From Takakia lepidozioides (Eukaryota; Plantae; Bryophyta), in contig CM060731.1 of assembly GCA_030704615.1 (NCBI GenBank), positions 19,406,001-19,470,000 of the forward strand: DNA of 64,000 nucleotides. Reading direction: 5' to 3'. Shown piece after piece: positions 3,809 through 58,230 of this stretch (positions within the stretch are counted from its first letter, which is position 1; every line of letters starts with the position of its first letter). The notes under the pieces are model-generated. The model was not told the DNA's origin, did no database searches, and saw only the letters and a program-made list of their open reading frames with translations. A program made the translations under genes and the position numbers.

Positions 3809-3889
3809 TGTTGACAGTGGGATTCGAACCCACGCCCTTTCGGACCAGAACCTTAATCTGGCGCCTTAGACCAACTCGGCCATATCAAC
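3809..3889 (-). tRNA. trnL-AAG: tRNA-Leu(AAG)
   Basis: Reverse complement GTTGATATGGCCGAGTTGGTCTAAGGCGCCAGA-TT-AAG-GT-TCTGGTCCGAAAGGGCGTGGGTTCGAATCCCACTGTCAACA. Confidence 0.97.
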
Positions 3890-16422: not shown

Positions 16423-16466
<44 letters not shown>

Positions 16467-19400
16467 ATTGTAATTGGGATGCACATATCCGGAAAGTTGT
16501 TCAAACTGGCAAGAGCAAAGCTCTGGGGCTCACTAAATTTTTCCACTGCAGAGGGGTCAACTCTGAGGTTAAGAAAACCATGCTTTGTCGCGTTATTAGA
16601 CCTGCCTTGGAGTACGGATCTGCTATATGGGTTGATAACTCCAACCAGGCTAAGTCTCTAGAATCCATTCAAGTGGGGGTGCTTAAGGAGTGTATGTCAG
16701 CATGCTCCAAAACAGCCAATGTGGCTGTTCGGGGTGAGTTTGGCATTCCGTCCCTAAGCTCCCGACGAGATGAATTCAAGGTCAGATGGTGGGGTCAGCT
16801 ACAACATATGCCCAACACCAGATATCCTAAGTTAATGGACTCTATATCTTGGAAACAGGACCGCCCTGTCAAACAGGCTAAGTCCTGGCAGAAGAGAGTA
16901 GAAGAGATTCTCAAGGACCTGGACCTGGATCCGCAAGTCTTGACCCTGCTGGATAAATCTGACTTAGAGGCTGTAGTGTCCTCAGCCATGTCTGTTGCCA
17001 TGAGATTGTCTGATGAAAATGAAGTTAGGCAGAAAACTTCCCTGAACTTGTTTCCAGTCTGTGACATGGGGGAGGACATCTTGGATGACCTCAAGGGTCT
17101 ACCCACTCTCGGCACTAGACTGAAATTTAAACTCAGGGCAGGAAGCCTACCTTTGAACAGCAAACAGAAGCAGAGAGGAAAGGGAGAGTGCAATTGCCCG
17201 TTGTGTGGGCAATCTGAAGACAGTATTCATTTTCTGATACACTGTCCGGGGTTCTCTCACCAAAGAGACGCTCTCTTCAAATCTATTAAGGGAATTGTGC
17301 CTGTACCCCTGTTTACCAACTTTGAAAGTCTCGAGGCTGAGCCAAAAGCCCAGGCCCTCCTGAGGCCTAGTTTTTGGGCAAATCACACACAGCAGATTGA
17401 TGCTTGTGTGAAGGGATTTCTAGAGGATATCTGGAAAACCCGGATTAATTCTTTATATGGAGGTAAGTCTTACTACCAACGTCAGCCCCTGACAGAGGTA
17501 GGTTCTGTCCCTTTTGTTCCCGCTCAAACTGGGCGCGGGGTCAATGGCCACAAGGCTACGGCAAACAACGTCTTATGAGTACAATCTCTCTCTCTCTACA
17601 CGGGCCATTCCCCTGCAACTCCCTGGAGTGAGATCTCTGAATGGTAACAAGCGGACTCCTACCGCTTGGGGGCAGCCCCTCCGCCCAAATTGGGCAGTCG
17701 TATGCTCTGTCTAGCATACTCGGCACTGGGCTCGGGTTGGTTCCTGTGCTTAAACTTATGGCCTGCGAAAACAATCAAAAATTTAGCTTCTATCAACATC
17801 AACACTCCTCAGGGTGATCCCTGGGAATTGGTGACTTATGCCAAATCTAGGGCTTCATGTGTAGTTTTTGGGGTGAATCCCAGGATGGACGATGTGTCCT
17901 TTAAAACTACATGCTCTAGCTTAGGCTTGGATTTCATGGCTAATGGTACCATCTCGAGACTTGATAACAGGGGTACGTTGAAGGTTGCAATGACCAAAAG
18001 TGCTTCTAATAGAGTCCCGCATCAATTCAATCTCAAAGAAGTTCGTCCCTTGACTGGCTGGAGAGCGGTCTTAGACATTGGTGATTCAATGGGGCGCTCT
18101 AGGAAGACAACCAAGGGCAACAACTTCAACTTGAGAGTTTCTAATCGGTTTGATGCTCTGGATGAGGTTGAATCCAAACAGCGAGGCTGAGCCAAAAGCC
18201 CAGGCCCTCCTGAGGCCTAGTTTTTGGGCAAATCACACACAGCAGATTGATGCTTGTGTGAAGGGATTTCTAGAGGATATCTGGAAAACCCGGATTAATT
18301 CTTTATATGGAGGTAAGTCTTACTACCAACGTCAGCCCCTGACAGAGGTAGGTTCTGTCCCTTTTGTTCCCGCTCAAACTGGGCGCGGGGTCAATGGCCA
18401 CAAGGCTACGGCAAACAACGTCTTATGAGTACAATCTCTCTCTCTCTCTCTTTCCCCCTATTTTGGGACCACATGTAACCTGCCTTTGATGAGAAAGATC
18501 TACTAAATTTTGACTTTGGGTTTTATTTTTAAGTCTTATGCTGATAGCGTATTTCCAACAGACCATTGGGCAAGCATACGAAGACATGCAGACGCAGAAC
18601 CAAAGGTTACTTCAGCAGATTACAGAACGCGATGATTACAACACTCAGGTATGTGAAACCGTTCATCCTGTGTGCCATGTCCTAAGGATCTGTGAAACTA
18701 TCTGTGATGGTTACCATGTGCAGTCATATTATCTGACACCAGGCAGTAGCACATTAGGTAGTGGAGAAGCAGGAGGCGCCTTGTGTTCATGCCAGCAGGT
18801 ACGTACTGTCTCAAACTTTTCACTTTAGGGAGTCTTGCCACAGAAATTATCTCCAAAGGGCTCAGTAATGGTGTTCTGACCCAAATTCCAGAATTGTAAC
18901 CACAGATCAGTCCCTGGGTACAGAGAACCAGCATTGTTATCATACTTTCAGTTTATCTTGTCTTTCCAGAGACATAGTAATGGACGGGGTCACTTTGTTG
19001 GAATGCAGCTAGCTCTCTGGCTGGCTCACTCATGACAGTACCAGTTACGAATGTAGGTGTTAAAGTGCTCCGAAATGAGGCTGAAACTTACATGTAGTCT
19101 TGTGGAAGTCTGCTGACAGCAATTTTTCGTGGTCTTCAGCTGGTGGCAGAGAGTTTAAAGGCAAAGCAGCAGCATTCGTCTTTACAGTCCGAGAAGCATG
19201 TATTGGCCAGCCGTATGCAGCAGGCTTATGCTGCAGCTGACCTCCACAAACAGCGCATAAGTCGCTTGGAAGAACAGGTATGAGCTTTACACCATGACCG
19301 CAGGAAGCTTTCTAGTCATGTAAGATGAAACAAGAGTATCTTGGGTATTCTAGACCTGAGCACCATGCCTAGTACGTGTTTCACACTACCAGTGACTTGG

Positions 19401-23813: not shown

Positions 23814-26800
23814 AGGTAGTTACACCCAAATGTGAGCGTTTTGCCCATACAATTGGTGCAGTAAGGGGAAAAATTATATGACTGGATGAGCAATTGAACA
23901 AACAGCTTGTGGTATGAATTGCATGAATTTTGGACGAAGTGGCTAATTGATATATATTATCAAAGTGGCAGGGCACAAAAATGCTATGCCTGAGCTATAG
24001 AGGGTACCATAACTCACTGAAATATTATCTAATATGAAGCCTACATGTGACCTGATATGCACGAGATGTGCACTTGAAATGGCCAACTACTACACCCAAT
24101 AACTCACCCAACAGCTCGGCCCACAAGAGCAAAAGGTATCCTATGGTGCAGTAGCGAAATAAAGGAGATCGGATGCATGAACTCCAGTAAGCCGCAAATG
24201 TCTGTTTGTGACGGTAATGTCATTGCTCATTGCCTTTGCTGATTCCAGAAAATGTGATATCCACTTGTGAAATAATATTGCAGTCATCCATGTTTTTCTT
24301 TGCATTGTCATTGTTGCTCCAGATTCACATTTGTGAATGTAATTGCGACGGAATCTTTTCCCTTTGAATATGTAGAAGTTTGGGATGTAACTTCCTGCAG
24401 CATTCATGCAGGTGAGGACGCTCAGCCACTCCCTTTGATCTGGTGTTATAGAATGAACAGATCTGGATCCGGTCTTGGCCAGCACAACAGCACCTCCGTT
24501 TCGCCCAGCTTGGGCCCCGGACTCGTCACAATTTCATATCCTTGTTGGCCCATAGTTGTGTACATCAGTTTTAGGTTAGCATAGAACGTCTTTACATTCT
24601 CTGGACATAGTCCCTTGGCCCTGCGAGTTTCTAGTCCTTGAGCTACTCTCAATGAAAGATGTGGATGTCGTGACCTGAACTATCTCACCCACCCCCAGCC
24701 CGGGATTCCATTTGTGAAAGGTGTGACTCTCTCTTGCGTAAAGACGTTCTATGCTAACCTAAAGCTGATGTATGAGAAGCACAACTATGGGCCAACAAGG
24801 ATATGGAATTGTGACGAGTCCGGGGCCCAAGCTGGGCGAAATGGAGGTGTTGTTGTGCTGGCCAAGACCGGATCCAGATTTGTTCATTCTATAACACCAG
24901 ATCAGAGGGAGTGGCTGAGCGTCCTCACTTGCATGAATGCTACAGGAAGTTACATCCCAAACTTCTACATATTCAAAGGGAAAATATTCCGTCGCAATTA
25001 CATTCACAAATGTGAATCTGGAGCAACAATGGCAATGCAAAGAAAAGCATGGATGACTGCAATATTGTTTCACAAGTGGATATCACATTTTCTGGAATCA
25101 GCAAAGGCAATGGGCAATGACATTACCGTCACAAACAGACATTTGCTAATTCTGCATAGTCACAACTCACACGTCACCCTAGACGTTGTCAAGCAAGCAA
25201 GATTAGGACTTGATGTCATTATACTTCCTTCCCACACATCCCATGCACTCCAGCCCCTTGATGTGGCAGTGTTCAAGCCCTTTAAGACTGCCTTCAGGAA
25301 ATATAGAGATGTTTGGACCATGGCACATAAAGGAAGAGGAGCGTTGAAAGAAGATCTGACCCAATGGGTCTCCCTTGCATTGAAAAAATGACTAACCCCT
25401 ACCAACATTGCCAAGGGATTCAAGACCTATGGGATCTGGCCTCTGAATCCAGAAGCCATGGCAGGAAAGATGGGGCCGGCATAATGTTTCTCAGGGCCGG
25501 GGACACCAGACCTGCACGCCGAGGAGATCAGGCCAGAATCAATGGACGAGGATACACCTGAGGGGGAGGTAGAAGACGTACTTGATGCCCTTCATGTGGA
25601 AGAGGTGTTGGGCAACCATGTGCCCAACATACAAGAGAATCACCACCACTACTTTGTGGTGGTCGAAGAGCCAGATGAGGATGGGCGCAATGACCAGGAA
25701 AGGGGCGATGACAACCAGCCACACTTTCGCAGTAGCCAGGAGTCCTTAGTGCAGCTCGATGATGACGCAGACTGGGAGATGGTTCCCAGCCAGCCAAAGG
25801 TCCCTTCATCAATCTCCCGATTCTTGACGCTCCCAGAGGCTCCTGCAGTCAATCGAAGGGTAAGAGCATCAAGAGATGAACCTATTATAGACTACAACAA
25901 GTCAATTATAATGACATCTGATGTATACTTGGCAGCACTAAAGCAAAAAGTGAGACTAAAAGAAAAAGCAACCCAAGCTCGTGAGCAGAAAAAAGAGGAG
26001 ACCCTGCAAGGTAAAACAAAGCGGGCAGCTAAGAAGATCGAGAAAGATGCTCTCAAGAAAGCCCGAACACAAGAGCGACTGGCCAAGAGGGCCTTCGACG
26101 CCAAGTGGTCGGCACGAGCCTGCAGCGAGGCAGGAGAACGTCTGAAGCAAACAACCCCTCCCCCAAGCATGCATGGATCGCCCCATTGTGCGGGTGGGCT
26201 CCACCAATCTGTAAACACAATCAAAAAATTGCTATTGCTAAACGTCGGACAAAGGCCCGAGGGGAAGACACAAGTCATCTGCAGGTCGTAGGAGTGCCAT
26301 GGGCGCATCAACCAGGTTCGGGACCACCTGTTGTAGAGTGAGTTGTTGTCATGGCAGACCATGGTGGGAAGGAGTTGCTGGGAGGCGACAAAGATGGCGG
26401 GAGGAATCAAGGTGGTGGCGGGAGAACAATAGGTGGAGAGCCGTCCTGTGAGACTGGTCCAAATTAGTGCAGTGAGAGGTGAGGTTTCAGGCTGGAAAAG
26501 CACGCAGTTTGGCACACTTTGGATCACTGCGTGCTTAAATAAAAATCCAAATCTAGGAGAGTGGGGTCCACTTTACATGCAGGATTGACCATTTCGCACA
26601 CATTCACGGTTTCCCAAGGGCTTACTGGAGTTCATGCATCCGATCTCCTTTATTTCGCTATTGCACCATAGGATACCTTTTGCTCTTGTGGGCCGAGCTG
26701 TTGGGTGAGTTATTGGGTGTAGTAGTTGGCCATTTCAAGTGCACATCTCGTGCATATCAGGTCACATGTAGGCTTCATATTAGATAATATTTCAGTGAGT

Positions 26801-27007
26801 TATGGTACCCTCTATAGCTCAGGCATAACATTTTTGTGCCCTGCCACTTTGATAATATATATCAATTAGCCACTTCGTCCAAAATTCATGCAATTCATAC
26901 CACAAGCTGTTTGTTCAATTGCTCATCCAGTCATATAATTTTTCCCCTTACTGCACCAATTGAATGGGCATATCTGCTTAAACGCTCACATTTGGGTGTA
27001 ACTACCT
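23814..27007. mobile_element. Tc1/mariner-superfamily pogo/Fot1-type (DDE_1) DNA transposon, rearranged into a fold-back
   Basis: Inverted termini AGGTAGTTACACCCAAATGTGAGCG each flanked by TA; ~380-bp inverted arms; transposase motifs IWNCDESG, LLIL(H)SHNSH and SHALQPLDVAVFKPFK at 24738-25391; an inverted partial copy at 24193-24740. Confidence 0.9.
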
Positions 27008-27267: not shown

Positions 27268-28032
27268 ATGGAGGATGGGTGGTTTTACCCAATTGCTTTG
27301 TGGAGCATGTACGTCTTAGCGCTGATGGCATTCTTGTCTCTAAGGGTTATGCAGGCACCGTATGGCCGGCATATAAGGAGGGGCTATGGAACCACCGTGG
27401 CTGCCCGAGAGGCCTGGATCATCTTCGAGAGTCCAACTCTCTTCGTGATGGTGATTGTATTCCATTTTGGACAACACAACATGGAGACGGTGCCCAATCT
27501 TCTTCTCAGATTTCACCAGTTGCATTTCGTCCACCGGTGTATTATATACCCTTTTCGCATGCGGGCTGAGGGCAAGCCTTCGGTGCCTATGGCGATCATT
27601 TTACATGCTATTGCTCTCAATGTGCTCAACACCTACGTGCAGGGTCGATGGATCTCGCACTACGGCAACTACACATCCTCATGGCTAACCAGCCCACAAT
27701 TTCTTATGGGCGCTCTATTGTTTTTCTCAGGAGCAGCGATCAATATCTGGGCTGACAACGTGCTTCTCAATCTCAGGGCGGACAGTCACGACCACTCCTA
27801 CAAAATACCCCGGGGTTTCTTGTATGACTATGTTACATGCCCTAACTATCTCGGCGAGATGATCGAATGGTTCGGTTGGGCCATGATGACAAACTCCTTT
27901 GCCGGTCTTGCTTTCTTTGTGTATTGTGTAGCAAATCTGGGCCCCAGAGCAGTGGACCACCACAAGTGGTACTTGAAAAAGTTCAACAATTATCCCCGGG
28001 ATCGAAAAATACTTGTGCCATTTCTGTTTTAG
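27268..28032 (+). CDS. DET2: Steroid 5-alpha-reductase (DET2-like), intronless, 254 aa
   Basis: APYGRH, AWIIFESP, NIWADNVLLNLR, YKIPRGFLYDYVTCPNYLGEMIEWFGWA, NLGPRAVDHHKWY and RKILVPFLF*. Confidence 0.93.
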   Translation: MEDGWFYPIALWSMYVLALMAFLSLRVMQAPYGRHIRRGYGTTVAAREAWIIFESPTLFVMVIVFHFGQHNMETVPNLLLRFHQLHFVHRCIIYPFRMRAEGKPSVPMAIILHAIALNVLNTYVQGRWISHYGNYTSSWLTSPQFLMGALLFFSGAAINIWADNVLLNLRADSHDHSYKIPRGFLYDYVTCPNYLGEMIEWFGWAMMTNSFAGLAFFVYCVANLGPRAVDHHKWYLKKFNNYPRDRKILVPFLF

Positions 28033-34609: not shown

Positions 34610-36483
34610 TCAAGGCTTCGGTAATAGCATCTTGAGTTTCCTAACTCTCCCAGAATGAGTCGTCGTCGATTTGGGTAACATTACTCTTACAGGGAGCCGT
34701 AGTAAGAGCTGACGATGAAGTAGAGTAGGATTTCTGGTTAACTCTGTCACTGACAAAGAGAACATCGCTGGAACTTGAGAGTGCATAATATTTGAATTAA
34801 CTGGTCCAATAGATCCACTTCCCTGAGAACCGCCATACTCAGATTCAATTACCCTTCTGTAGTTCTCTTTCTCTTCTTCAAGAGCTTGTTCATATGAAAG
34901 AGGCTTTCCATTGCACACTTCAACAGATACAATTCGTTGCAGGGCAGGATCTCTAACCATTTTGTTCATTTGATTGTATCTGCATACAAAGGAATAATAG
35001 CAATATATGAGTGTAAGATATTACCAGTTGAAATACAAAAGCAGGAAACATAGAGATCTAGATAGAATGTAATATACTTGCCATATGCCTTAGCACTCCT
35101 GTGACCTGTAAGCTCCATTCCATGTTCTCGTGGAACATAAGCTTCCTCCATCCGTGTTATTCCACCACCGCGACCAGTCTTGTTGGTAAGAACTTTGCCG
35201 GCTAATTCTGGCAGCTCCCTGGTCATCTTGTTCGTGTAGGAACGCAACGAATTTCTACCTACAGGAATCTTCGAGAACCAGACATCATCAGTAAACTTCC
35301 ATTTCTGCCTTGGTGTGAGGAACATAGGGTGCGGCCCTAATTCCTGAGGAATCCACGTAGGTCGTTTCTTGATGAGCAGTTTGTAGAGATCAATTACATG
35401 TGCATCCTGACAATCAACAGGTTTTCTATGATCTTCCGCATTGCAATGATTGATATCCAATTGATAATTCTCGGAGATGCCCTGACAAAACCTACAAAGA
35501 AAGTACAAAATGTCAAGCCAATACTTTGACTAAAAAGCATGTTAACATAATGCAATTCATGCACTGATCACTTATGTTGTGGCAAAACCTGCAAAGAAAA
35601 TGCAAGATGTCAAGCCAACGTAAATCTGAAGATATTTCCAAAAAACATGAATTAACATGCAATTCGTGCACTCACTGTAGAACAACTCCCAACCGCGTCT
35701 CGACTAGAGTGAAATCCTCTTCGTCCACTTTGCGAAGTTCAGCAAAAGCTCTTACGAAGAAATTTCGAGTACACATGTAGCTAAACCACATATTGAGACC
35801 AGATGGTGAGTAAGGCTGACAAAGTTTTTGGCTCAACATGAGGATTTCTTCCTGCTTAGTTAGCACATTGCTTTTTTAACAATGCGTCCCAAACCTGCAT
35901 TGCATGAGCGACAAACAGCCTCGTCCGCGGCCAGTTTCACTTTGGCATATCTTGGATCATTCAGAATGTTGAAGATACAAGCTGGCACTTCTCCAGACTC
36001 TACTATCCGCATCTCGCATGGTGCTCTTATAAGACGTCCCAAAGCTCTGAACATCGACTGTATACTCCCTGGAGGGTACAAAGAGCCATCGCTCTTAGTC
36101 ACCTCTAATATGAATAATGTTAGCATGTCTACTAACAATTTCACATCAGTTTCTGACAGGTCCACCACTGATTTTTCTGTCGAGTAACCTTTATGCTTCC
36201 TCCAGCAATCGAATGCTCGACGGGCCCATAACTCACCGTGCTTATTGCGACGCCGACCTCCTCCCAGCACATTCTGCAGCTCACTCTCGTCAACCTCTCG
36301 AAAGCGCCTAACCAAATTAACAACACTTCTAGGTTGCGTTGAAGTACGTGCTTGCGGATCCTTGTCATCACCATTATTAGGCACATCATAATCATCATCA
36401 GGTACCTCCTCAAAATCTTCGATAAGAGGAATACACCAATCTAGAAAACCAACAACCTCAGCGTCATCACAGACAGGGTTCTG
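34610..36483 (-). mobile_element. Crypton-like (DUF3504-type) tyrosine-recombinase gene with spliceosomal introns, catalytic part; degenerate
   Basis: KSDGSLYPPGSI, FFVRAFAELR (first Arg), WFSKIPVGRNSL, LTNKTGR (HxxR position) and LTGHRSAKAYGKY. GT-AG introns at ~35490-35675 and 35077-34980; a frameshift near 35865. Confidence 0.8.
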
Positions 36484-36502
36484 GGACGATCGCCTGGCAC
36501 CC

Positions 36503-37716
36503 TCACAGACGACCTCCGTCGTTTAAACCCTTTTTCTCTTTAAGCTGTTCAATCAAAGTTGGTAAATCTGACTGAAACGGACACCATCGAGTATAGTGTT
36601 CAGTGGATTTACAAATCATGCAAGCAGGCAAAGAAGCCTTGTTCACATACCTCTGACTTGCTTGAGGCTTGCCACGAGAACCAATAGGCTTGTTACCTTG
36701 AATATGTCGGCCATCGGAATCCGAGGGGCGTCGGGTTACTTCACTTTTCATGGCCAAAATTTGGTCTTGTACCTCACTACGAAATTGCTGCAGCTCCTGT
36801 ACAATGGCAGGAAGTAGCTCATCTGTGCAAAGCTTCCCCCCTTCATGAGAATCAGAAACGTTAGTACCACAAGAGCTGGCCAATAATTGGGTAGCCTTGG
36901 CGGGAGAAGTGTAGGGTACACCAGCCTTTGCAGCTTTTAACCTTAGCTTTTCTTCCAACTGACCAACCATCTCGTCTTCATGATGATGTTGTTGCTTCTA
37001 TAGAAAGACTCTTTCTGCTGGTGGCAAGCCCTTGATGAAACAATGTTTCAGGATGGCAGTCCGTTCAATAGGGTCGTCAACGGCCTTACACACTGTTGTG
37101 CGAGGATCAGTGTAATATTTCCATAAACTGTCGCCAGGGATGAATGTTAGTTCGGGTACAGTGTAGGTTATGGGCTTGGCCTCTCGAAACAATCTTCCTG
37201 CCGATGTTTTTGCTTCTTCCCAAGGCAGCTCAGTCTTACCTTTAATGTTGGATTCAAAAATCTTACGAGCCTCACCTTTCAGGCATACCTGGAAAGCCTT
37301 GACAACAAAACGAGATGGAACGGAATTGATCTCCCTACTGATATCAAAGAATTCCAAAAACGATTCAAAATCATCCCCTAAGTTAAAATCAGAGTAGGGC
37401 TGTTTGTGTATTTTCTCTGTGTAGTCAGGGGGTTTACCAGCAGTAGACACAGGGGTGTTTTGCTGAATCAACATTTTCATTAAAGGCGGACAATCGGATA
37501 CTACACCCATGGCTTCACAAAGCTTCTCCACATCAAGAGCTGGCTCTTGAGGGACCTTATCCTTTGCTACCCCTCCCTGATCAATAGATTCTTCAGCTTG
37601 AGAGATCTCATTCTTGTCAGCATCTAACTCTCTCTCTTTCTTCTAGCTTCAAGTTCACTCAATCCTACCATCTCTTCGGCTTCCTTTTCCAGCATGGCCC
37701 TAGTGTAGACAGGCAT
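36503..37716 (-). mobile_element. gag of gypsy element A (within the inverted segment), degenerate
   Basis: Starts MPVYTRAM; capsid-like LKGEARKIF…FIKGLPP; zinc knuckle CMICKSTEHYTRWC; ends at GGGTTTAAAC; in-frame TAG at ~36998. Confidence 0.8.
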
Positions 37717-38834: not shown

Positions 38835-39366
38835 AGATTCCGAGCCCGGGGGTATATTCCCCTGTTTGTCCGGTATTTACCAGTATGAGGGTTGTAGCAC
38901 AGTAGGGCAGTAATACGCTTGATAGGATGGAACCTTGTACAACGATTAACCTCACTTTAACACTTTCATCCAAGCACCACAAAGGTACACTGACAAGATC
39001 TGTAACCGAAATCCACCACCCGAGATTCTGAGTGCTTGATTTACATAGTACTAAGCATATAATCCTATCCAGCCAAACGGCCGTCATCATTGGGCTGGCC
39101 AGGATGCCATCCCAGCTAGGCCACACAATCAGGCCACCTCATCTAATCTAATCCTAATCTAACTGTTAACTAAAGACAACATCAACTTAATGTAGCCAGC
39201 TGTACCGGCACCTAATGCGTAACGGCTACTCAGTCACCATCTATCCAGGATTAACTGTGAGTTTCATCCATCGCGTCATTCGTTACTTTGAATGAGCGTC
39301 ACCATCCTGTTGCATCCGCGATCTCATTCATCCATGCCCAAAAGCAAGCAAGTCGGAATCTTCACA
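38835..39366 (-). repeat. 5' LTR of gypsy A (inverted relative to the 3' LTR)
   Basis: ~530-bp reverse-complement match to 57699-58230; internal terminal inverted repeat AGATTCCG…CGGAATCT. Confidence 0.88.
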
Positions 39367-39479
39367 TAAAAAGCCTTCTCTAGGGTAACGTGACATCCCT
39401 CGGATATTATATCTGTCATTGCATATATTACGAAAAATAAAATGGATGAACTTTCAAGTTTATTAGGGCTGAAAATAGA

Positions 39480-40136: not shown

Positions 40137-41810
40137 TTAGTGCTGGCTTCTAAGGTAAGCCTTTCCCCTGTTTCTCTTGCTGTGGGCACCTCAATGGCCA
40201 CTTTTGCTAAATTGCAGCTACAGGCTGCTAGCATGTGAGAACAGGTGGGGTTGCATTATAACTGGGCACGATTTAGACAATATGAAGCTGCTGATGGTGT
40301 CTTCAGCAATGGCTTGAAATTCCTCTCACCAGGTCAGAAGAGTGGACCCCCTCTGCCTGTTCCCAAGAACACATTGTTGCTTCGCTCCCCTATTGACTTT
40401 GTTCTGCCTGCCTTCTCTCAGCATATAGTGCCATCATGATTAGCATTTGTATGCCCTAAGGGCCACTTTCTGGAAGTGGAAGGCTGGAAAAAGTTAGCCT
40501 TGCAAAAACACTGCCTCGTGGCAGGGGGTGATTGATCGTGGCTTTAAAGGTGAAGTGAGGCTTTGCTTGCTAACCCCGAGCGTATACCTGTTCATGTGCG
40601 GAAGGGGCAGGTGCTAGCAAGGCTTTCTGCCGTCCCTCTTTCTGAGTTAGCTTAGGTTCAGCGTGCCTTGTCCCTCCAAGACATAGGGCTTGTTTACAGC
40701 CCCTTGGACCAGCTGCAGTCATTTGCTGCTCACCAGAGTTCCCCTGCTTGCCCAACGCTTACCCCTGCCCAGGAGACTCATTTTCAGCAGGTACTCACTG
40801 ACATCAAGGTGGGTGCTCATTCTACCCCTGCCGAGAAACCGATGTCTCGCCTAATTATTCGCAACAATCTAGATGTGTTTAGCCAGGGCCCTCGTGATCT
40901 TGGCAAGACTGACATTCTGCAGCATGATATAATCACTGAAGGATCCCCTTTCAGGCAACATGCATACAGGGAGAGTGTTTGTGAGCGCAAAATCATCCAA
41001 GAGGAAATCACCCGCATGCTTGATGCAGGCGTGATCACCCCCTCTATTTCTCCATGGGCTAGTCCCATCGTTTTGGTCGGTAAGAAGGATGGCTCCACTC
41101 GATTCTGTGTTGACTTTCGCCGATTGAATGCTATTACTAAACGTGATGTGTACCCTCTTCCTCGCATAAATGAAATGCTAGATCAGCTCAACGGTGCCAC
41201 GATTTTTTCGTCCCTAGATCTAGCCGCTGGATTCTGGCAAGTTCCTCTCACTTTCCTCTGCCAAAGAAAAGATTGCTTTTACATGCAGGATGGGTATGTA
41301 TCAGTTTGAGACTATGCCGTTTGGGCTTTGTAATGCCACTGCCACGTTTCAGCGGCTCATGGATGTAGTGTTAGGCAACCTCAGATAGGAATGTGCCCTT
41401 GTATATATTGATGACATCAATGTTTACTCTACTACCTTCGAAGCTCATCTGTTGGACTTGCAGAGGGTGGTGTGCAGACTTCGTGCTGCCGGACTTAAAG
41501 TCAAAGCAAAGAAGTGTGACTTTTGTATGAAACAGCTGCATTTTATGGGTCATCTTCTTTCAGCTGCAGGCATCAGTCCTGATCCAAACAAAATTAGGGC
41601 TGTTTGGGAGTATCCCACCCCCAAGGACAAGCACTGCGTCAAGGCCTTTCTTGGCTTAGGCTCATATTATCATCGATTCATCTCTCAATTTGCAAAGATT
41701 GTTGCTCCTTTGACTAGGCTTTTGTCTAAAGATGTGCGATTTGTTTGGGGCCTAGCTGAAACCTCTGCCTTTGAGAAACTCAAGATTGCCTTGTTCTTGC
41801 TTACCTAGAT
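40137..41810 (+). mobile_element. pol of gypsy A: reverse transcriptase, frameshifted
   Basis: [55 protein letters not shown] and FLGLGSYY. Confidence 0.93.
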
Positions 41811-44060: not shown

Positions 44061-44129
44061 CATTTAGTGCATTATTAGCCTCTCAAGTGATGTCAACAAG
44101 CATTCAACGACACAGGAGAGGGAGGAAGT

Positions 44130-45302
44130 GATCTTAAGTGGCAGTGGGGTAACCAAGAGATCCCGGTCCTCTCTTCCTACACTTACCTGGGCGTTCACTT
44201 TTCCTCCAATTGTAATTGGGATGCACATATCCGGAAAGTTGTTCAAACTGGCAAGGGCAAAGCTCTGGGGCTCACTAAATTTTTCCACTGCAGAGGGGTC
44301 AACTCTGAGGTTAAGAAAACAATGGTTTGTCGTGTTATTAGACCTGCCTTGGAGTACGGATCTGCTATATGGGTTGATAACTCCAACCAGGCTAAGTCTG
44401 TATAATCCATTCAAGTGGGGGTGCTTAAGGAATGTATGTCAGCATGCTCCAAAACAACCAATGTGGCTGTTCGGGGTGAGTTTGGCATTCCGTCCTTAAG
44501 CTCCCGACGAGATGAATTCAAGGTCAGATGGTGGGGTCAGCTGCAACATATGCCCAAGACCAGATATCCTAAGTTAATCGACTCTATATCTTGGAAACAG
44601 GACCGCCTTGTCAAACAGGCTAAGTCATGGTAGAAGAGATTGCTAGAGATTCTCAAGGACCTGGACCTGGATCCGCAAGTCTTGACCCTGCTGGATAAAT
44701 CTGACTTAGAGGCTGTAGTGTCCAAAGCCATGTCTGTTGCCATGAGATTGTCTGATGAAAATGAAGTTAGGCAGAAAACTTCCCTGAACTTGTTTCCAAT
44801 CAGTGACATGGGGGACGACATCTTGGATGACCTCAAGGGTCTACCCACTCTCGGCACTAGACTGAAATTTAAACTCAGGGCAGGAAGGCTACCTTTGAAC
44901 AGCAAACAGAAGCAGAGAGGAAAGGGAGAGTGCAATTGCCCGTTGTGTGGGCAATCTGAAGACAGTATTCATTTTCACATACACTGTCCGAGGTTCTCTC
45001 ACCAAAGAGACGCTCTTCAATTCTATCAAGGAAATTGTGCCTGTATCCCTGTTTACCAACTTTGAAAGTCTCGAGGCTGAGCCAAAAGCCCAGGCCCTCC
45101 TGAGGCCTAGTTTTTGGGCAAATCGCACACAACAGATTGATGCTTGTGTGAAGGGATTTCTAGAGGATATATGGAAAACCCGGATTAATTCTTTATATGA
45201 AGGTAAGTCTTACTACCAACGTCAGCCCCTGACAGAGGTAGGTTCTGTTTTTTTTGTTCCCGCTCAAACTGGGCGCGGGGTCAATGGCCACAAGGCTACG
45301 GC
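44130..45302 (+). mobile_element. Second long, degenerate copy of the (CT)n LINE family
   Basis: Near-identical to 16463-17562; extends 5' to the RT motif SYTYLGV; contains stops and frameshifts; tail lost. Confidence 0.9.
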
Positions 45303-45319
45303 AGTGTATGTCAGCATGC

Positions 45320-48300
45320 TCCAGGTTCGAGTTAGTTGTGTAGCACTTGTGTTTTCAGATCATGAAAAGCGGTTCAGCCTAGAGTGCAGGGAGCCGTGCA
45401 TGAGCCTATGCAAAGCGGATAGAGTGCAAAGGCGAACAGGTTGCAGGTTTGCCATGGATTGAGAGGCGGGTAGCCTATGTTGAAGAGCGGCGTTGCATAG
45501 CTCAACGCTATGACAACCAAGTTTGGGCTTCTAGTGTGAAGCGGAGGAGATGTTGGCCACGAGTGGGCGAACTGGTGGTCATCTTCTTTAGCTGCAGGCC
45601 GAGTTAAGGAGCTGCTGAAATGTGGGCTGCGCATGGGAAGTTAGCATGTTGCAGGTTGGAGATGATATGATCAGCTCCAGGTATCTGCCCGAAACGAGTT
45701 GTTGCGGGTAGATGAGGAGCAGCCGAATGGCGGAGGTGCGAGGGGATGCATCGCAGCCTGTTGGGAGCTGCAGCTCCAAGCTCATGAAGAGAGGGGGCTG
45801 GTCCCTCTTGTGTGCAAATCAGTGCACTTGTGAAATATTGCTTGAGTTGGAAGTTTCAATTTGAAACTCTAGCACGTCGAGGGCTCTTGGAGTGGCAAGA
45901 GCAGGGTTGGAAGGGCAGCAGTGAGGCGTCCTAGAGCGAGGGAATGTGCAGTAGAACTGCAGGTACACCAAGTTTATCAAGGTGTGTATTTTCAGATTCA
46001 CTTTTGTGAGTTTCGTGGAGAAATGGAGCTTGTTGGGCAGCATATAGCTTGCTTGTTGAGTTGGGGGCACTTCTAGTGGGCCGTGAGAGCTCAGGAGTGC
46101 AGGGCGACGGGGCTGATGGCTCCCAGAAGCCATAGCTCAGCGGCAGCAGATGCAAGAGCAAACCCCAGCTCGGGGACAACTCGGGAACACGTGAGAACGC
46201 CGGGAATGCCTCGGGAACGCATGGGAACTCGTTGGGAGTTCCAGGGATCGCAGGGAATAGTGGTCATGATGGGCCGTTGGGGCGGTATCAATAGATACCA
46301 CGAGCCCAGGTCGTGATGGTTGACCGTGACCGTTGACCATGACCGTTGGAAGTCGTGGTGCAGATACAACGGGTGGGCACGGTGACCAGATCGTGGGGAT
46401 GGCGGGCCGTGAAGGCCCGTGGGAGTAGTACCACGGGGTATCACTGGGCAGCCCGTGGCCAACGAGTGCCTAGGGCGGGCCGTGAGGAGTCGTGGCGGTT
46501 GGAGCCACGGAAGGCCGCGAACAGTTAGAGTGAAAAAAATAAAAAAATAAAAAAAAATAAAAATCACTCATTTCGTGGGAACTTGATGGGGAGGCTGGGT
46601 TCTGAAGAACAACGGTTTTGAGCTAGCTGATCCGGCAGAAAAGTCGGAATTGCCTCCCTGTTGCGTTTTAACAAAGGGGATTACTTCCCTGCAGGTAATC
46701 TTTTCAGGTTTTCAGCCCAATTTTTAACTATGGGGAAGACCAGCCTGCAGGTAATTCCTTTGGACAGAATGTTGTTGGGGCCTATATGTACCTCTATTTG
46801 CTCCATTTTTGAACCTTCAGCGAATGGTGTGGTTTCCTGAGGTGGTTCCATTCGGAGGAATGGCTGGTGGACGTAAGGAGGCACTAGCGGACCCTGTCAA
46901 GGCTTGCATGGGGCCTTGGAGGCCAAGTTTCATGAGCTCGTAGAGGGCGGTTTGAGGAGTGTCTACAGGATGCTCTCATGGTCATGCAAGTGAGAGAAGA
47001 GAGGAAAAAAAAGGGTGTTGGGATGAGAGCGTGCTTGGGATAGGCATTGCTTTAGCTTCTCTTCCTCGTAGCTTTCCACCTTCTCTGTAGGCCGAGACCT
47101 TTCTGTAGGTGGAGGCAAGAGTCAGTCCGGGTTTGGGCTGGGTTGCAGGAGCGACACTATGGAGTTGTTTTTGGTGTGGGGGAGTTGTTGTTTTCATTCT
47201 TGTGTTTGGATCCCCTCCACACCTGCATGCTTGATTGTGCGCCATGCTAGTTTTGTGTGGGCGCTTGATTTTATAGGTGGTGGACTCAGGCTTGATCGCC
47301 GATCCCACCCTAGAGCATGTTGTCGATGGTGAGGCTGGGTTGATGACCAGTCAGACCATCTTTTGTTTCTCCTGTGGTGAGGTTGGAGGTGATGACCAGC
47401 CAACCATAGGAGTGCCTGCAGTGGATGCAGGTGTAGGTGCAGGCTATGTTAGGAACCTAGTATTCCAAACCATAAGCCACATCAGGTTCTCTACCCGGTT
47501 ACCTTGTGGAGAGGGGGTTAGAGACATGTTCATGACCGGTTGAGTGTCAGTTTGTCAACACGGAGGTGCCACTAGTTGCTGGGGAAAGTGCTAGTACAAG
47601 CACTAGCGATACTAGCGGGTATACGAGACGAGGTGTGCGGTTTAGGCCACCTTCACCTCCTGTGTCTTCTACGGAAGGTTCTGATTTGGATTGTGAATCA
47701 GGAAGACTCACACCGGCGGTGCAAGTTGTTTCTTTGTCATTGTTGTGGGACACGATGGAGGAGATGTATGGAGCCACCAAGGGGTCATGAAGGTACTCTG
47801 GGGCGATGGGCACCATTGAGTTGGATGATTTTATCCAAGAGTTTGATAGTTGGTGTAACTTGCAGGAAATGTGCAATCCACAATTGTTTACGCATTTCAT
47901 GGCATGGAAGGGGCTGTTTCAGCACCTTGAGGGGCCGCCCACGGACGATTATCATGAGTTTAGGCGGGGGCACGATGTTGAGATCGAGGAGTGGAGGATG
48001 TACTGGTCACCCGACTATGTCTCCATCACTAGAGGCACTAGAGGCATAAGGGCAGCAGCTACACCGGCAGCTGCACCAGCAGCAGCAACTACAATAACAG
48101 CTTCCACGAGCAGTAGTGAGACTAGTGGTACAGCAACTACGACGTCCACCTAAGCTATTGCTGCACCAGCACCAGTGGCGGTGCCTGCCTTCAACCCTGT
48201 TGTGGAGTTCTTCGAAGAGTTGAGAAGGAACTACCAAGGGGTGAGGACAAAGAAGTTGAGGAGCTTGCAAGAGTTCCAACGGAAGCCTACTAAGAGCTTG

Positions 48301-51300
48301 AGGGAGACTTTCACTCACATGAGGCGCTTGATTAATGTAACCCAAGGGGTTACGGAGGCTCAGGCAGTCCAGTTCTGCTACGGGATATTGGACAAGGAGC
48401 TGAGGAGAAGGGTGCGGGATGCAACTCTCCTACAAGCGACCCAACCCACCTTAGCAAATGTGTTTTTGCTGGCAGAGCGGATAGAGCTCAACATGGTGGA
48501 GGAACGAGTGGTCATGGTGGGATTTGCTAAGGAGGCACCACGGGGTAGTGGTGCTCCTAGCCAGCCACTACCTCAACGTGCTCAAGGCAGCAAGGGGGCT
48601 CAGGTGAAGCCTAGGGAAGGGCAGAGAAGACCTCAGATGCAGGGGTCTCTCTCTTCATTTGCTGGCCAACAACGGGCGGATGTGGTGTGCTGGACATGTG
48701 GAGGACCCCATGTCAAGAAGGATTGCCCAGAGGGAGGCAATGGTTTGGCACCGGCACAGCCTGCACATGTGCAGTGTGGGCATTGTGGCAGGTACGGGCA
48801 TGGAGAGGCCCAGTGCTATGGTTTGCACCCTGAGTTGCGCCCAGGCCAGTTCCAAGGGAACAATGGTGGCCGGGGGTGAGGTGGAGCAGCCCAGAGAGGA
48901 CAAGGTGGCCAGGCACGAGGTGCAGGCCAAGGGCAAGCTCAACATGGCCAAGGACGCGGAGGTCAGGGTGGTGACCAAGGCATGGCCAACCGGCTTCAGC
49001 AGCTAGAGCAGAGGCTTGTTGCCATGGCCACAACTCAGGTGGTACCGGCTCCAAGGCCGGATGATCCACCTCCTGCTCCTGAAGGAGGAGACTTGGGAGG
49101 CATGGGATTCATGTGCGGGGCAGCACTACCACTAGTGAGGGGTGCCACTACCACTACCACTGTGGGCGGGGCACCACTACCACTAGTGCCGGGCAGTACT
49201 ACCACTACCACTATGTGCGGGGCAGGACTACCACTAGTGCAAGTGGAGTCAGCTGCGGCAGTGACTCGAGGAGCAGCACGAGTTCCTGAGCCACGGGGTG
49301 CGGAGGTGGAGTTGGATCCACCGCGTGGGGAGGCAAGCCGTCAGGCCAGGCTTCCTCAGTCATTCACATTAGTGAAGACAGTGTCGACGCCGTCCATGGC
49401 ACCTAGTTCCCGCCCGACTGTTACCGAGGCGGAGGTTACTATGCCATTGGGGAGAGCTACACGGGCAGCACCACTACCTAGTGTTGCCAAGGCTACGACA
49501 GCTAGTGTGTTGCTGGGGGCGGCCACAGCTGTGTGCCAGACTCCATTGTTCTCGGCTACCATGATTGCGACGCCGGGGGTAAGACCAGCTGAGATGTTCA
49601 GGCTGGCAGCGACACTCTGTGAGAGTGGGGAGGTTACTTCATCTTCTGCGGAGATAGTGGGAGGTGTAGTGCCGGAGGGATCCTCGGATGTGAGGTTCAA
49701 GACTGCCACGGCAGCGCCATGGCAAGCTGCAGCTGCCAGGTTGATGGAGCTGTCAGCTAGGCCAGCCATTGAGCGCGCCATGGTAACACCTGGAGTTGTC
49801 ATGTTAGACAACTAGGATGACATTTTCTGTGTGAGTGGACCAGCAGGCAAGAGGTACCGGCCACTACGAGTCTTGTTGGACTCGGGAGCTCAGCCATTGA
49901 TGTTAGGCAGAGCTGCTATTGCAGGCTTGGGCCTCACGGAGGCGGATATGGAGCTGTGCCCTTTCCAGATACAGACATCTTTGGGAGGATCAAAGCAGGC
50001 TCGGGGCATGACACGGCGTGAGTTGGCTATCAGACTACAGCCGGATCATCCTACAGATGGCTCAGTGATGAGAGCCAAGGCCATTGTGACAGACGCGGTC
50101 TCGTACGATGTCCTTGTTGGTGGGGCAGTGTTGTACCTCATGGGCTTCACCTTGGATTTTTGGGAGGATTCAGCTTCCTATAGGCCTAGATGGCAGTCAG
50201 GGGAGGGCCGACGTGTGCAGCTCCTTGTGACGTTCATAGGAGGAGTTGCGGTTGTCCAGCGAAGCAAGATGCCAACTCTGGCAGCATTCACAGCTGCAGT
50301 GACTTGGCCTGGAGAGTTGTTGGATGACAACACTCATTCAGAGGATGTGTCACCTCCGGGAGAGCAGGATGACATGTATGGTATGACAGAGTTGCCTGCC
50401 ATGGTTGCTCACACTCCATTGTGGGGCTCGAGCAAGGATTTGCAGCGGGTTGCTGATTGTCGTGTGCAACAAGCCTGGGTAGAGGCTTTTGTACCGTCAG
50501 GAGAGGAGGACAGTGCAGGGATTGCACCAGGTCCATCTCAGTTGTCACCATTGGACACCACACCGATCATGTGGCAGTGTCCGGATGAAGGTATTTGCCT
50601 TCTGGACTTGTTTGGCGGGATCAGCACCGGATTGGCTGCAGTTCTACAGGCAGGTGTACGGGTACGGCGTTACCTGTATGTGGAGAGGGATGAGATTGCA
50701 CGACGCATCTCCCTACGCCATGTTGCTCAGTTGGTGCAGCAGTATCCTAAGTTGTTGCCGTTGTCTGCAGTTCGTGGATATTTAGTCAATAGGGATGCGC
50801 ATGGATTGAGTCGCAATCCATGCACGAGCCAGCAGGATGACATTGGAGCTCGGTGGCATGGTGAGAAGGACGAGGAGATGGTGCCGGGATGACATGCATC
50901 TGCCTTTTTGTGTATCTTGGCATCGGGAGGTCAGGTTGGACCTACAACAGGGATGACTGTAGACGGAGTGTCTGAGGACCCTGAGGCTAGTGATGAGCCA
51001 GGTGGTGCCAGAGATATACACGAGGATTCGGTTGTGTTGGACTACCTCCGCACTGGAGACACGGCAGCTAGTGTGACTGCCAAGGAGAGGGATCGGATCC
51101 TACAACGAGCCAAGAGGTTCAAGTGGGAGGGGATACACCTGCTTCGAGTGTGGGAGGATGGTCGGGTGAGGATCGTGCCTCACCCAACACAGCGTGCACG
51201 GTTAGTGCGGCATGCCCATGAGGAGTTGGGGCATTTTGGAATACGACGCACTCATAGTTTACTGAAGGGGCAGTATTAGTGGCGTGGTATGTACACAGAG

Positions 51301-53899
51301 GTGCAACAGTTCGTGGCTAGGTGCATGATGTGTGACAGGGTGCGTGCTTCATTCAACGCCCCTACACCACAGTTGCATCCTTTACCCATCATGGGATTGG
51401 GCTACAGGTAGAGTCTTGACTTCGCAGGGCTTTTGCCATTGACGATGCGTCTCCACAGATACGTGTTGGTGATGGTGGAGCACTTCTCCAAGTGGATTGA
51501 GTTGGTTCCATTGCCTGACAAGGCTAATGAGGGGGCTGCATATGCATTCCTGGATCGTGTGCTTAGCCGATTCAGTGCTCCTGCTGAGGTACTCACGGAC
51601 CAAGGGAGAGAGTTCTTGGGGGAGTTTCAGGCTTTGTGTGGTAAAGCCTTCATAGACCACTGTACCACTTCTCGGGATCATCCTGAGGCCGATGGCTTGG
51701 CAGAGAGAGTGGTGCAGACGGTGAAGAGGGGTTTGCGCAAGTATGGCTTGCAAACAAGCAAGCATCACTTGCCTCCTTCTCACCATATTTCCTTCTCTTT
51801 GGCCGAGAGCCAGATTTGCCTGCGTCTATTCGCAGGGAGGCTGCAGTAGTCCTCAACCTTGATGATCCGGATGTGTGGACACAAGCATGTGCCCAGCGGG
51901 CAGAGTTGTTCAAGAGAGTCATGCCTATGGCTTTTGAGAATCTTGCTATTGCCCAACACCGAGACACATTGAGGTATGTCACTATACGTGGAGGGGGATA
52001 TCGGCCAAGTGTTCGGCGTTTTCACCCTGGGGACTATGTGTATCTGCAGTAGACAGTGCCTACGACCTTGGATGTCACAGCAGGACGTGTGATTCTAAGG
52101 GTCAGGGAGGTGTTGCCTTCAGGAGTGTTGATTCTGGAGGGTCGAGATGGCATGGTATGGAAGGACCATGTGCGTAATTGTGCGCCATGTCACCTTCCAC
52201 ATGTGGATGGGAGGATAGATCCCAACCTTGCAGTGGTACCTGCAGGATTGCGTTGCATGCTATGTGGGCATGCTCGTGGTGCCGTCACTATGCTGGTGTG
52301 TGATCGATGCTCAAAAGGTTGGCACATGGGATGCTTGACACCACCTCTTGAGAGGGTTCCTGATGGAGATTGGTTATGTCCACCCTGCTTGGGATAGTGG
52401 CAGTGGATATGACTAGTGGCAGCTCACAAGACATGGGAGGCCAAGCTCATAGGAGTCAATACCGAAGATCTCAGGCTCAAGTTCACAGGTTGCAAGACGG
52501 CGACTAACGATGGGGCAACTCTTGTACCCGGCCTCTTGATCTATTGAGTTTGAGTGTAGTAGGGACAGTGGTGGAGGACCTAGTGAGGCTATGGCCACTA
52601 TCACATCTTGTGGCTACCTGGACTTAGAGGGACCTAAGCGCCAGCTAGGGGGGCGATTGTGATGGGCTAGTGGCAGCCTAGTGGTGGACTAGTGGCTGCA
52701 CTAGTGGTGACTAGTGGTTGTCTAGTGGCAGCCTAGTGGTGCACTAGTGGTGCACTAGTGATAGACTAGTGTTTGGTGTGTACATATGTTGTGTGGTTTG
52801 GACAGCGATGTAGTTGTGTAGCGATATGTATGCGCACGATAGCTGTCAAGTTATTTTACCACTAGTGTGAAGTTAGCTAGGAAATAGCTAGCTTTTATAT
52901 ATTGACATTTGGGATTGACCCAAGTGTCAATCCAGGGGCCAATACATGTTTGGGCACCTGGCGTTGTTATCTTCACGGCAGATCGCGGTGGGCTTATCTT
53001 TCACGAGTTGAGCCTCACCGCGTCTAGCTATGGCGCCGTAGTGTGGATTCCCCATGGCGTGGGGTGCACTTGGCTCGACTTAATATATGAGTGATGTTTT
53101 CATGTGCAAGTGTGTGAGTTTGAGAGAGCTTGTATGCTTGTATCATTCCTTTCCTTATCATTGTGATGGGCTAGTGGCAGCCTAGTGGTGGACTAGTGGC
53201 TGCACTAGTGGTGGCTAGTGGCAGCCTAGTGATGGACTAGTGGCTGCACTAGTGGTGGCTAATATCAGCCTAGTGGTTGACTAGTGGCTGCACTAGTGGT
53301 GCACTAGTGATAGACTAGTGTTCAGTGTGTACATATGTTGTGTGGTTTGGACAACGATGTAGTTGTGTAGCGATATGTATGCGCACGACAGCTGTCAAGT
53401 TATTTTACCACTAGTGTGAAGTTAGCTAGGAAATAGCTAGCTTTTATATATTGACATTTGGGATTGACCCAAGTGTCAATCCAGGGGCCAATACATGTTT
53501 GGGCACCTGGCATTGTTATCTTCACGGCAGATCGCGGTGGGCTTATCTTTCACGAGTTGAGCCTCACCGCGTCTAGCTATGGCGCCGTAGTGTGGATTCC
53601 CCATGGCGTGGGGTGCACTTGGCTCGACTTAATATATGAGTGATGTTTTCATGTGCAAGTGTGTAAGTTTGAGAGAGCTTGTATGCTTGTATCATTCTTT
53701 TCCTTATCATTGTGATGGGCTAGTGGCAGCCTAGTGGTGGAGTAGTGGCTGCACTAGTGGTGGCTAGTGGCAGCCTAATGATGGACTAGTGGATGCACTA
53801 GTGGTGGCTAGTAGCAGCCTAGTGGTTGACTAGTGGCTGCACTAGTGGTGACTAGTGGTTGTCTAGTGGCAGCCTAGTGGTGCACTAGTGGTGCCCTAG
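45320..53899 (+). mobile_element. Ty3/gypsy element B: long leader, gag, protease, C5-DNMT fragment, (RT/RH deleted), integrase, PHD finger, PPT and tandem LTRs
   Basis: gag ~47755-48879 with two CCHC knuckles; protease VLLDSGAQ; LLDLFGGIS…YVERD; integrase HAHEELGH…CxxC, LDFAG…TDQGREF…LAERVVQT; PHD at 52250-52397; PPT AGGGGGGCGAT. The 5' LTR was not found. Confidence 0.88.
52658..53899 (+). repeat. Tandem LTRs of gypsy B (52658-53160, 53162-53709, partial 53711-53899), each starting with a CTAGTGG minisatellite
   Basis: Units run TGTGATGGG…CCTTATCA, are nearly identical and are separated by a single T. Confidence 0.88.
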
Positions 53900-57439: not shown

Positions 57440-57698
57440 GCCATAGTTAGCATTCGTTTGTTGTTTCGTGCTAGTAATGGCATCACATTGTACCAGGATC
57501 GGGGTTTTTCCAAATTGATCTTTTGTCCTTCGCCCACCCTGCAGCGCAAGGTTTTGTTCAGTTGGTTTTTTCATCCCAAGCCTGCGCGGATGCCTAGTTT
57601 TTTTTGTCTAGTTTTGTTATAGTTCCCCTGTTCTCTTTTCCTTTGTAGCTCGTTGGAGCTCGCTTGGCTTGAGGGGCCAGCAAGCCGCACATATGTGA

Positions 57699-58230
57699 TG
57701 TGGAGATTCCGACCTGCTTGCTTTTGGGCATGGATGAATGAGATCGCGGATGCAGCAGGATGGTGACGCTCATTCAAAGTAACGAATGACGTGATGGATG
57801 AAACTCACAGTTAATCCTAGATGGATGGTGACTGAGTAGCCATTACGCATTAGGTGCCGGTACAGCTGGCTACATTAAGTTGATGTTGTCTTTAGTTAAC
57901 AATTAGATTAGGATTAGATTAGATGAGGTGGCCTGATTGTGTGGCCTAGCTGGGATGGCATCTGGCTAGCCAATGAATAACGGCCGTTTGGCTGGATAAG
58001 ATTATATGCTTAGGTACTATATAAATCAAAGCACTCAAGAAATCGGGGTGGTGGATTTTGGTTACAGATCTTGTACGGTGTACCTTTGTGGTGCTTGGAT
58101 GAAAGTGTTAAAGTGAGGTTAATCGTTGTACAAGGTTCCATCCTATCAAGCGTGTCACTGCCCTACTGTGCTATAACCCTCATACTGGTAATACCGGACA
58201 AAGGGGCATATATCCCCGGCCCCGGAATCT
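57699..58230 (+). repeat. 3' LTR of gypsy A (may extend to CACA at 58239)
   Basis: Follows the integrase; reverse-complement match to 38835-39366. Confidence 0.88.

Follow-up and report, generated by a model that had tools for sequence, protein, structure and literature searches.

The window, a 64,000-nt stretch of contig CM060731.1 from the bryophyte Takakia lepidozioides, contains at 47755-52397 a dead copy, with part of its sequence deleted, of a high-copy Gypsy-order retrotransposon family. On the forward strand, this copy retains gag, protease, motifs I and II of a C5 DNA methyltransferase (DNMT), a junction where ∼2.5 kb has been deleted, the end of RNase H, integrase, and a PHD finger. 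An earlier note, made by inspection of the DNA, had proposed a Gypsy element carrying both a C5 methyltransferase and a PHD finger, which was confirmed by alignment to relatives and by Pfam matches to rve and PHD. That note placed the start of the element at 49831; instead, frame 1 opens at the gag ATG at 47755. It continues through gag (47755-49866; two Cys/His knuckles, a long linker, and four in-frame stops, from translation and tblastn with Marchantia protein P0003), aspartic protease (49867-50193), the methyltransferase peptide GICLLDLFGGISTG...YLYVERDE (from 50590), LVNRDAHGLSR, and the zinc finger and core of integrase. Residues 1-943 of P0003 aligned by tblastn to 47755-50781 at 47% identity. 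The protease (LLDSGA) was recognized by tblastn to the family protease, with an Asp_protease_2 score (E 0.017) under the cut-off; its marker LLDSGAQ near 49873 shares a frame with the methyltransferase peptide, which was found at 50590-50781 as claimed. Integrase (51184-52202; PF17921, E 5e-5; PF00665 [rve], E 5e-12) comprises an H2C2 finger, a DDE core, and a GPY-type C-terminal region, and is interrupted by stops. Beyond a small frameshifting deletion within integrase at 51755, another frame runs to a C4HC3 finger and stops at 52395.

Eight premature in-frame stops precede the terminal stop in translation; the copy is dead, in agreement with the note. The larger deletion, at 50781/50782, removed DNMT motifs III to X, a stop, reverse transcriptase (RT), and most of RNase H, whose C-terminal end (50782-50814; NRDAHGLSR, from tblastn and translation) follows in frame, as the note had recognized. 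Gauged on three relatives, the missing length was 2496 to 2641 nt. Contigs from all four sequencing runs exit the window sequence at 50780/50781 and continue with the DNMT residues that follow; further contigs enter at 50781 from the RNase H side (four of four runs with loose ends on both sides). Since contigs cross this point from DNMT and from RNase H, the ∼2.5-kb deletion is specific to the window copy. Sister copies in the Takakia host are known through these contigs, which give no copy number.

The N-terminal DNMT fragment (50590-50781, motifs I and II) was assigned by alignment to relatives with the whole domain; these relatives align to the window as far as 50781 and then stop. Of the profile searches that the note had suggested, the PHD finger and the whole DNMT domain of relatives (PF00145) scored, whereas the 71-aa window fragment searched by itself received no Pfam score. 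The fragment was 81% identical to P0008 over 68 columns. For the protease-DNMT frame we found 25 longer relatives, named members of which come from Marchantia polymorpha, Calypogeia fissa, and Sphagnum fallax, and PF00145 scored in 17 of the 25; the intact domain of locus L028 matched at 4e-13. The best PDB sequence matches of the whole domain were DNMT3A (1e-11), followed by DNMT3B and then HaeIII/HhaI, and DNMT3A was also the top Foldseek match (E 2e-9) of a weak whole-domain model (pLDDT 52, TM 0.39). Relatives carry the DNMT3-type motifs I, IV (PC), VI (ENV), VIII (RxR), and X in unpermuted order, and the window copy carries I and II only. By these motifs and matches, the methyltransferase of the relatives is of the DNMT3-like C5 type. 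The claim that the intact family encodes a DNMT also held, as sister copies keep the segment and relatives keep PCQ and ENV.

Pairing of DNMT and PHD is, from the sequence comparisons, a property of the whole clade. Among 120 relatives of the integrase end, PHD was present in 115, and DNMT segments were also found in 42; named hosts are Marchantia, Calypogeia, Coleochaete (a transcript), Pleodorina, Haematococcus, Hariotina, and Cymbomonas. A single 2811-aa open reading frame (ORF), P0323, carries all domains, and DNMT, RT, RNase H, integrase, and PHD occurred in this order at 17 of 80 metagenome loci. The Ty3/Gypsy order of gag, protease, RT, RNase H, and DDE integrase is thus seen in the window remnants, at 17/80 loci, and in P0323. 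Most of the 80 loci belong to one decayed Sphagnum-like family, and some are the same site in two assemblies; DNMT domains were free of breaks in 2 of 62. Two layouts were observed: DNMT ahead of RT (land plants, P0323, and L082) and DNMT placed after RNase H and before integrase (the named members being chlorophytes). As the note had suggested, trees of DNMT and RT were built, and both split the same way, separating the RNase H-DNMT-integrase type with support of 100 and 96 (RT and DNMT, respectively) and grouping the window with Marchantia, Calypogeia, L027, and L028 (support 97). These trees are unrooted, without host DNMT3 or named Gypsy references, and the RT tree is a quick version in which one intended outgroup, L029, turned out to be a family member. 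The matching splits fit long vertical inheritance with one change of DNMT position; two separate DNMT captures are also conceivable. A search of 50% clusters returned 235 at E ≤ 1e-30 and 803 at 1e-10, and no relatives of P0067 or P0031 were found among viral contigs. We also noted an intact eukaryotic member on contigs binned as a cyanobacterial genome (L082:1-9285 and L081:1-2905), which probably reflects contamination from an alga or a plant; in assembly, L082 closes into a circle holding a single B-A unit (repeats defined below). In four Sphagnum-like copies (L011, L015, L024, and L033), another repeat, of ∼0.8 to 0.9 kb, is inserted just past PHD.

Although the interpretation in the earlier note was supported, it overlooked two features of the family: a stop between DNMT and RT, and permuted ends. 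In 28 of 30 loci with DNMT and RT in the same frame, an in-frame stop lies 43 codons ahead of the RT block. We examined 45 RT starts, 37 of them with context, and TAG or TAA followed by CAA was present in 35 of the 37. The stop reads TAG CAA CCA in L028 and TAG CAA TCA in L082, representing two other lineages; both fit UAG-CAR-YYA, described as the tobamovirus readthrough motif (PMC3159437), and neither has an adjoining ATG. In L082 the gag-protease-DNMT part is free of stops and the second frame is whole, and the Marchantia, Calypogeia, and JGI ORF1 models terminate 82 to 88 residues past motif X, that is, at the family stop. A frameshift between DNMT and RT was considered and dropped, given the in-frame stop at that place. 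These patterns suggest that the TAG-CAA stop is likely read through, with DNMT made along with Gag, and Pol made by readthrough; the position of DNMT ahead of the stop would set its production at the Gag level. Three observations are harder to reconcile with readthrough: the commonest family has an ATG two codons downstream of the stop, so re-initiation is possible there; no clear stop occupies this position in the L079/L080 family; and P0323 lacks any. In the window copy, the site falls inside the deletion.

We propose that DNMT would be made and packaged at the Gag level and, once released by the protease, would methylate CG sites of the newly made cDNA. Methylation of cDNA had been raised as a possibility in the note and was proposed for DNMT-bearing elements by de Mendoza 2018 (PMC5890265). 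The best-surviving alternative, which we consider unlikely, keeps the same family and anatomy but has the domain serve as a structural DNA- or RNA-binding module within the particle, act on host chromatin surrounding the insertion, or be near-inactive, so that cDNA is not methylated. Several results speak for this alternative and weigh against catalysis on cDNA; the weakness of the fold model noted above also counts against the main reading. EC replaces PC in many algal relatives. CpG loss was not specific to the element: observed/expected CpG was 0.47 in the window element versus 0.33 to 0.54 in neighboring elements, and 0.50 to 0.59 in six relatives, no lower than in their flanks. Dosage at the Gag level would also exceed the need of catalysis on one cDNA. 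In yeast, no methylation by the Klebsormidium DNMT was seen, a result that its authors called inconclusive; human DNMT3B, however, likewise failed in that assay, and the related DNMT3s of Symbiodinium retrotransposons methylate CG de novo (PMC5890265). Furthermore, the catalytic Cys was present in 73 of 75 metagenome loci and the ENV Glu in 65 of 71, and Cys, ENV, and RxR were retained in all intact land-plant-type domains, which are under purifying selection. The ratio of nonsynonymous to synonymous substitution (dN/dS) in DNMT was 0.13 to 0.24 between lineages where dS was measurable, similar to protease and gag, and 0.5 to 0.8 among dead sister copies.

The C4HC3 PHD finger (52254-52397, including the stop; PF00628, E 1.7e-10 at 52254-52388) closes the integrase frame, as the note had stated; chromo families were absent from the Pfam results, and PHD occupies the integrase C terminus instead. 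The closest solved domains were those of CHD4, KDM5B and KDM5A PHD1, WSTF, ATXR5, BAZ2B, and BHC80. KDM5B PHD1 contacts unmodified H3 through L325, D328, P347, G349, W351, and D308, and its residues for H3 A1 and R2 are known (PMC4225485). Counterparts of L325, D328, P347, G349, and W351 were present in the window PHD and in most of the 92 relatives (of 120) that fit the pattern, with the R2-binding Asp in 91 and Gly-x-Trp in 82. Readers of H3K4me3 have a cage Trp at the position two before His. This position was Gly in 82/92 relatives. Less favorable to H3 binding, the H3K4-binding Asp of KDM5B (D308) is absent from the window PHD, and an acidic residue within four residues before the first Cys was found in only 53/92 relatives. 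From these residues, PHD is predicted to bind the H3 N terminus but not K4me3; it would tether integrase to the free H3 N terminus, biasing insertion toward nucleosomes without H3K4me3. In P0331 (Hariotina), a PTM/DIR17-like Tudor domain follows PHD (residues 2403-2459) and is possibly a second reader.

Repeat comparison showed that the sequence at 52658-53160, which the note had taken for a long terminal repeat (LTR), is a single B-A unit within a B-A-B-A-(partial B) array on the forward strand, and not one ordinary LTR. A polypurine tract, AGGGGGGCGA (52647-52656), with an equal tract ahead of B in two other lineages, is followed by repeat B copy 1 (52657-52841), an 11/44-nt minisatellite that ends in CACGATA and whose last ∼70 nt are 75 to 78% like B of metagenome relatives. 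Repeat A copy 1 (52844-53160; TGTCAAG...TTATCA) comes next. The B|A junction is a palindrome, CACGA(C/T)A-GC-TGTCA (52835-52848; second copy at 53384-53397), which is the putative integrase site. A second B-A unit (53161-53709) is identical to the first at 380 of 385 nt, minisatellite excluded, and a third B (53710-53898) is truncated ahead of its CACGACA end. At 53161 the A end runs directly into the base that follows the polypurine tract, as expected of the two ends of a finished cDNA. The 3′ end of the element thus reads tract-B-A-B-A-partial B. No 5′ copy of the repeat was found in the 64-kb window; what is left of the 5′ A is its final 4 nt (ATCA), immediately before a putative self-priming primer-binding site (together 46563-46580, assigned by pairing with repeat A). 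A leader, noncoding as far as seen, occupies 46581-47754; family-level contig depth begins at ∼47000, and relatives have 1.2 to 1.5 kb between A and gag. A GC-rich repetitive segment with an A-rich tail (46090-46564) stands at the expected place of the 5′ A.

The complete arrangement, A-coding-tract-B-A-B, was recovered in L008, L035, and L055, and its 3′ part in L033, L039, L072, and L081; some relatives end at the first B instead. Complete LTRs matched at both ends were not found: the 5′ end is A and the 3′ end is B, with termini TGTCA and CACGACA. Target duplications were scored on the eight loci of relatives with both ends, rather than on the window copy, and lay outside the A start and the B end, with an exact 4 bp in six loci and one mismatch in two. 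Both arms of the palindrome correspond to outer element ends beside the duplications in these relatives. CACGACA-GC-TGTCA was found at B|A in the window, the Sphagnum-like family, and L081/L082, and palindrome, tract, and B-A-B were seen in three lineages.

No tRNA-type site follows the 5′ A; in its place stands a run of 10 to 14 nt complementary to a stretch of A. In the window, 46567-46580 pairs at 13 of 14 positions with 52999-53012 in repeat A copy 1, the putative self-primer (10 Watson-Crick and 3 G-U pairs); among 2240 positions scanned (45501-47740), nine pair equally well with some 14-mer of A, and only the 46567 site follows CA. The letters of this site differ in three lineages while pairing with their own A is kept, a pattern of covariation. 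Pairing was 14/14 in L045, L054, and L055 and 12/12 in L082, and weaker in many decayed copies. The complementary stretch of A sits ∼28 to 30 nt past a TATA-like motif in relatives; the window copy has no such motif at this spacing. By analogy with Tf1 and Tj1, which show this pattern (PMC4600332), the site after A is a putative self-priming site.

The repeat unit for RT would thus be B-A, and for integrase the ends would fall between B and A. We consider the simplest reading to be a two-repeat circle opened at its internal palindrome. RNA would start inside the 5′ A, ∼30 nt past the TATA-like motif, and would self-prime as in Tf1, with reverse transcription yielding B A-coding-B A. Both cDNA ends would then be joined bluntly, the A end to the base after the polypurine tract. 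Integrase would nick after CA on each strand of GACA-GC-TGTC, leaving 2-nt 5′ overhangs, and insertion of these ends with a 4-bp stagger would give A-coding-B-A-B. For retroelements with a DDE integrase, circles are mostly regarded as dead ends. Integrase does cleave the junctions of HIV 2-LTR circles (PMC4372172). Family anatomy we regard as established with high confidence. For the full mechanism, in which the window holds a dead copy of a Gag-protease-DNMT/readthrough stop/RT-RNase H-integrase-PHD family that integrates a reopened circle, our confidence is moderate, with the balance modestly in its favor; DNMT activity, PHD binding, readthrough, and circle are all predictions from sequence. 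If the mechanism is correct, circle integration becomes directly testable through a short, defined site.

Two other routes to the split repeats, which we judge doubtful at about one chance in four, are a single-strand circle of the DIRS/Ngaro kind with the internal junction as its template, and internal cutting of linear cDNA whose ends host repair joins in the course of insertion. The layout is identical to that of DIRS-type elements, and some DIRS/Ngaro elements carry methyltransferases as well as split direct repeats. A-B-A-coding-B, a form expected from a symmetric two-repeat circle, was seen at 0 of 20 intact 5′ ends, which tells against the circle and in favor of these routes; short-read collapse could account for its absence. 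The A|B joint of L008 also holds a 20-nt insertion, as after repair. DIRS/Ngaro elements, however, use a tyrosine recombinase and make no target duplication, whereas this family has a protease and a DDE integrase together with 4-bp duplications that point to the action of this integrase, and Pfam scans of family proteins detected no tyrosine recombinase. The tract before B and the primer site after A point to ordinary LTR-type reverse transcription, and both routes would still require the internal palindrome. A further limit on the circle reading is that the window copy has lost both ends, which makes its own target duplication unreadable.

That this is an ordinary LTR element with odd ends created by later recombination, nesting, or misassembly is largely refuted, and we assign it very little probability. 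Tandem LTR structures are reported to be common in plants (PMC11899658). L011 and L033 share a right flank, yet one ends in B and the other in B-A-B, showing that collapse or B-B recombination occurs; a duplication of this kind probably accounts for the additional B-A unit of the window. Because these two loci show one site both ways, the short A-coding-B form may itself reflect collapse or recombination, which weakened our candidate explanation of that form as a one-repeat circle. Against an ordinary LTR element, exact duplications lie outside the A start and the B end in 6/8 loci, B is present on none of the 20 intact 5′ ends, and layout and palindrome turn up again in Klebsormidium and in three lineages whose synonymous sites are saturated. 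That the methyltransferase-like peptide is a chance match or host fragment in one copy, as its missing Pfam score might suggest, is refuted by the sister contigs and dozens of relatives that hold the whole domain at the same place.

DNMT3-Gypsy elements (Klebsormidium) and PHD-Gypsy elements (Chlamydomonas) have already been published separately. KnitGypsy-Dnmt3 of Klebsormidium nitens, described by de Mendoza 2018 (PMC5890265), shares with the present family the Gypsy domain set, a Dnmt3-like domain under purifying selection, and DIRS-like repeats (A-coding-B-A-B), and a K. nitens integrase (P0141) is 48% identical to that of the window. The parts of that paper and its supplements that were searched give no land-plant copies, PHD, stop before RT, target duplication, priming mode, or repeat mechanism. 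Gypsy-7a_cRei of Chlamydomonas (PMC9940879) has a PHD in its polyprotein that was proposed to steer insertion, as here; in the sections consulted no DNMT is named, and PHD is listed before integrase rather than at its end. EpiLTRs of Cymbomonas and Euglena also join a chromatin reader to a DNA methyltransferase in LTR elements, but combine a chromodomain with DAM and a DNMT4-sister enzyme and are stated to be distinct from streptophyte Gypsy-DNMT3 (bioRxiv 10.64898/2026.05.21.726589). Tf1/Sushi and Tcn1 chromoviruses (PMC6317226, PMC4600332) share tRNA-free self-priming and a reader at the integrase end; unlike the window family, they are described with a chromodomain and matched LTRs at both ends and without a DNMT. 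Retroviral 2-LTR circles (PMC4372172, PMC1180852, PMC1905944) share a palindromic end junction cut by integrase, but are presented as a side path at the true joint of cDNA ends, whereas here the cut would fall at a dedicated palindrome inside the repeat, used by all intact-ended copies.

According to a 2019 review (PMC6338049), land plants such as tracheophytes lack transposons that bear a methylase; a 2025 paper and bioRxiv 10.64898/2026.05.21.726589 name only "streptophytes." Our literature search, which did not extend to Repbase, the REM1 paper, Craig's thesis, or some supplements, returned no report of land-plant DNMT3-Gypsy elements, of DNMT3 and PHD in one element, or of the readthrough stop and end mechanism. 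REM1 of Chlamydomonas is reportedly a PHD-bearing Gypsy element. We therefore take as new the land-plant members, the conserved and likely read-through TAG-CAA stop that puts DNMT in the Gag frame, and the permuted ends. That a green-plant-wide clade shares palindrome-cut circle integration, Gag-level DNMT3 by readthrough, and a PHD reading H3 is a generalization we advance tentatively, as its chances fall somewhat short of even. Contrary to PMC6338049, DNMT3-bearing elements are now found in land plants, including the model Marchantia polymorpha, in which the role of a retrotransposon's own methyltransferase becomes genetically tractable. Copies of this family also account for several gene models of Marchantia that are annotated as hypothetical or as DNA methyltransferase. 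LTR_FINDER surveys are described as requiring matched LTRs (PMC6317226); because the two ends do not match, copies of the family would escape LTR finders.

Other features of the window were annotated alongside the element. Inverted repeats with 97% identity (38877-39367 and 57698-58191), ∼18 to 19 kb apart, bracket the whole DNMT-Gypsy element. A second, unrelated broken Gypsy RT (40656-41793, forward strand) is ∼41% identical to the family and served as a row in the RT tree only. LINE-like 3′-end copies at 16421-18404 and 44064-45462, with an RT tail and a zinc-binding region recognized by eye, are 94 to 96% alike. A DDE_1 (pogo/Tc5-like) DNA transposon at 23842-26970 has 352-nt inverted arms at 99% identity and a second, 367-nt inverted pair inside. 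An intronless steroid 5-alpha-reductase (DET2-like) gene (27271-28029, forward strand) has its best named match in Calypogeia (54%), below other matches of 58 to 60%, followed by Ginkgo at 51% and many bacterial proteins at ∼50%; this host gene points to a land plant, probably a bryophyte. On the reverse strand, ORFs at 35860-36522 and 34966-35529 resemble by eye a tyrosine-recombinase/DUF3504 (Crypton-like) remnant; Pfam gave no match for the ORF at 35860-36522. Two tRNA-Leu genes lie on opposite strands at 3603-3686 and 3809-3889.

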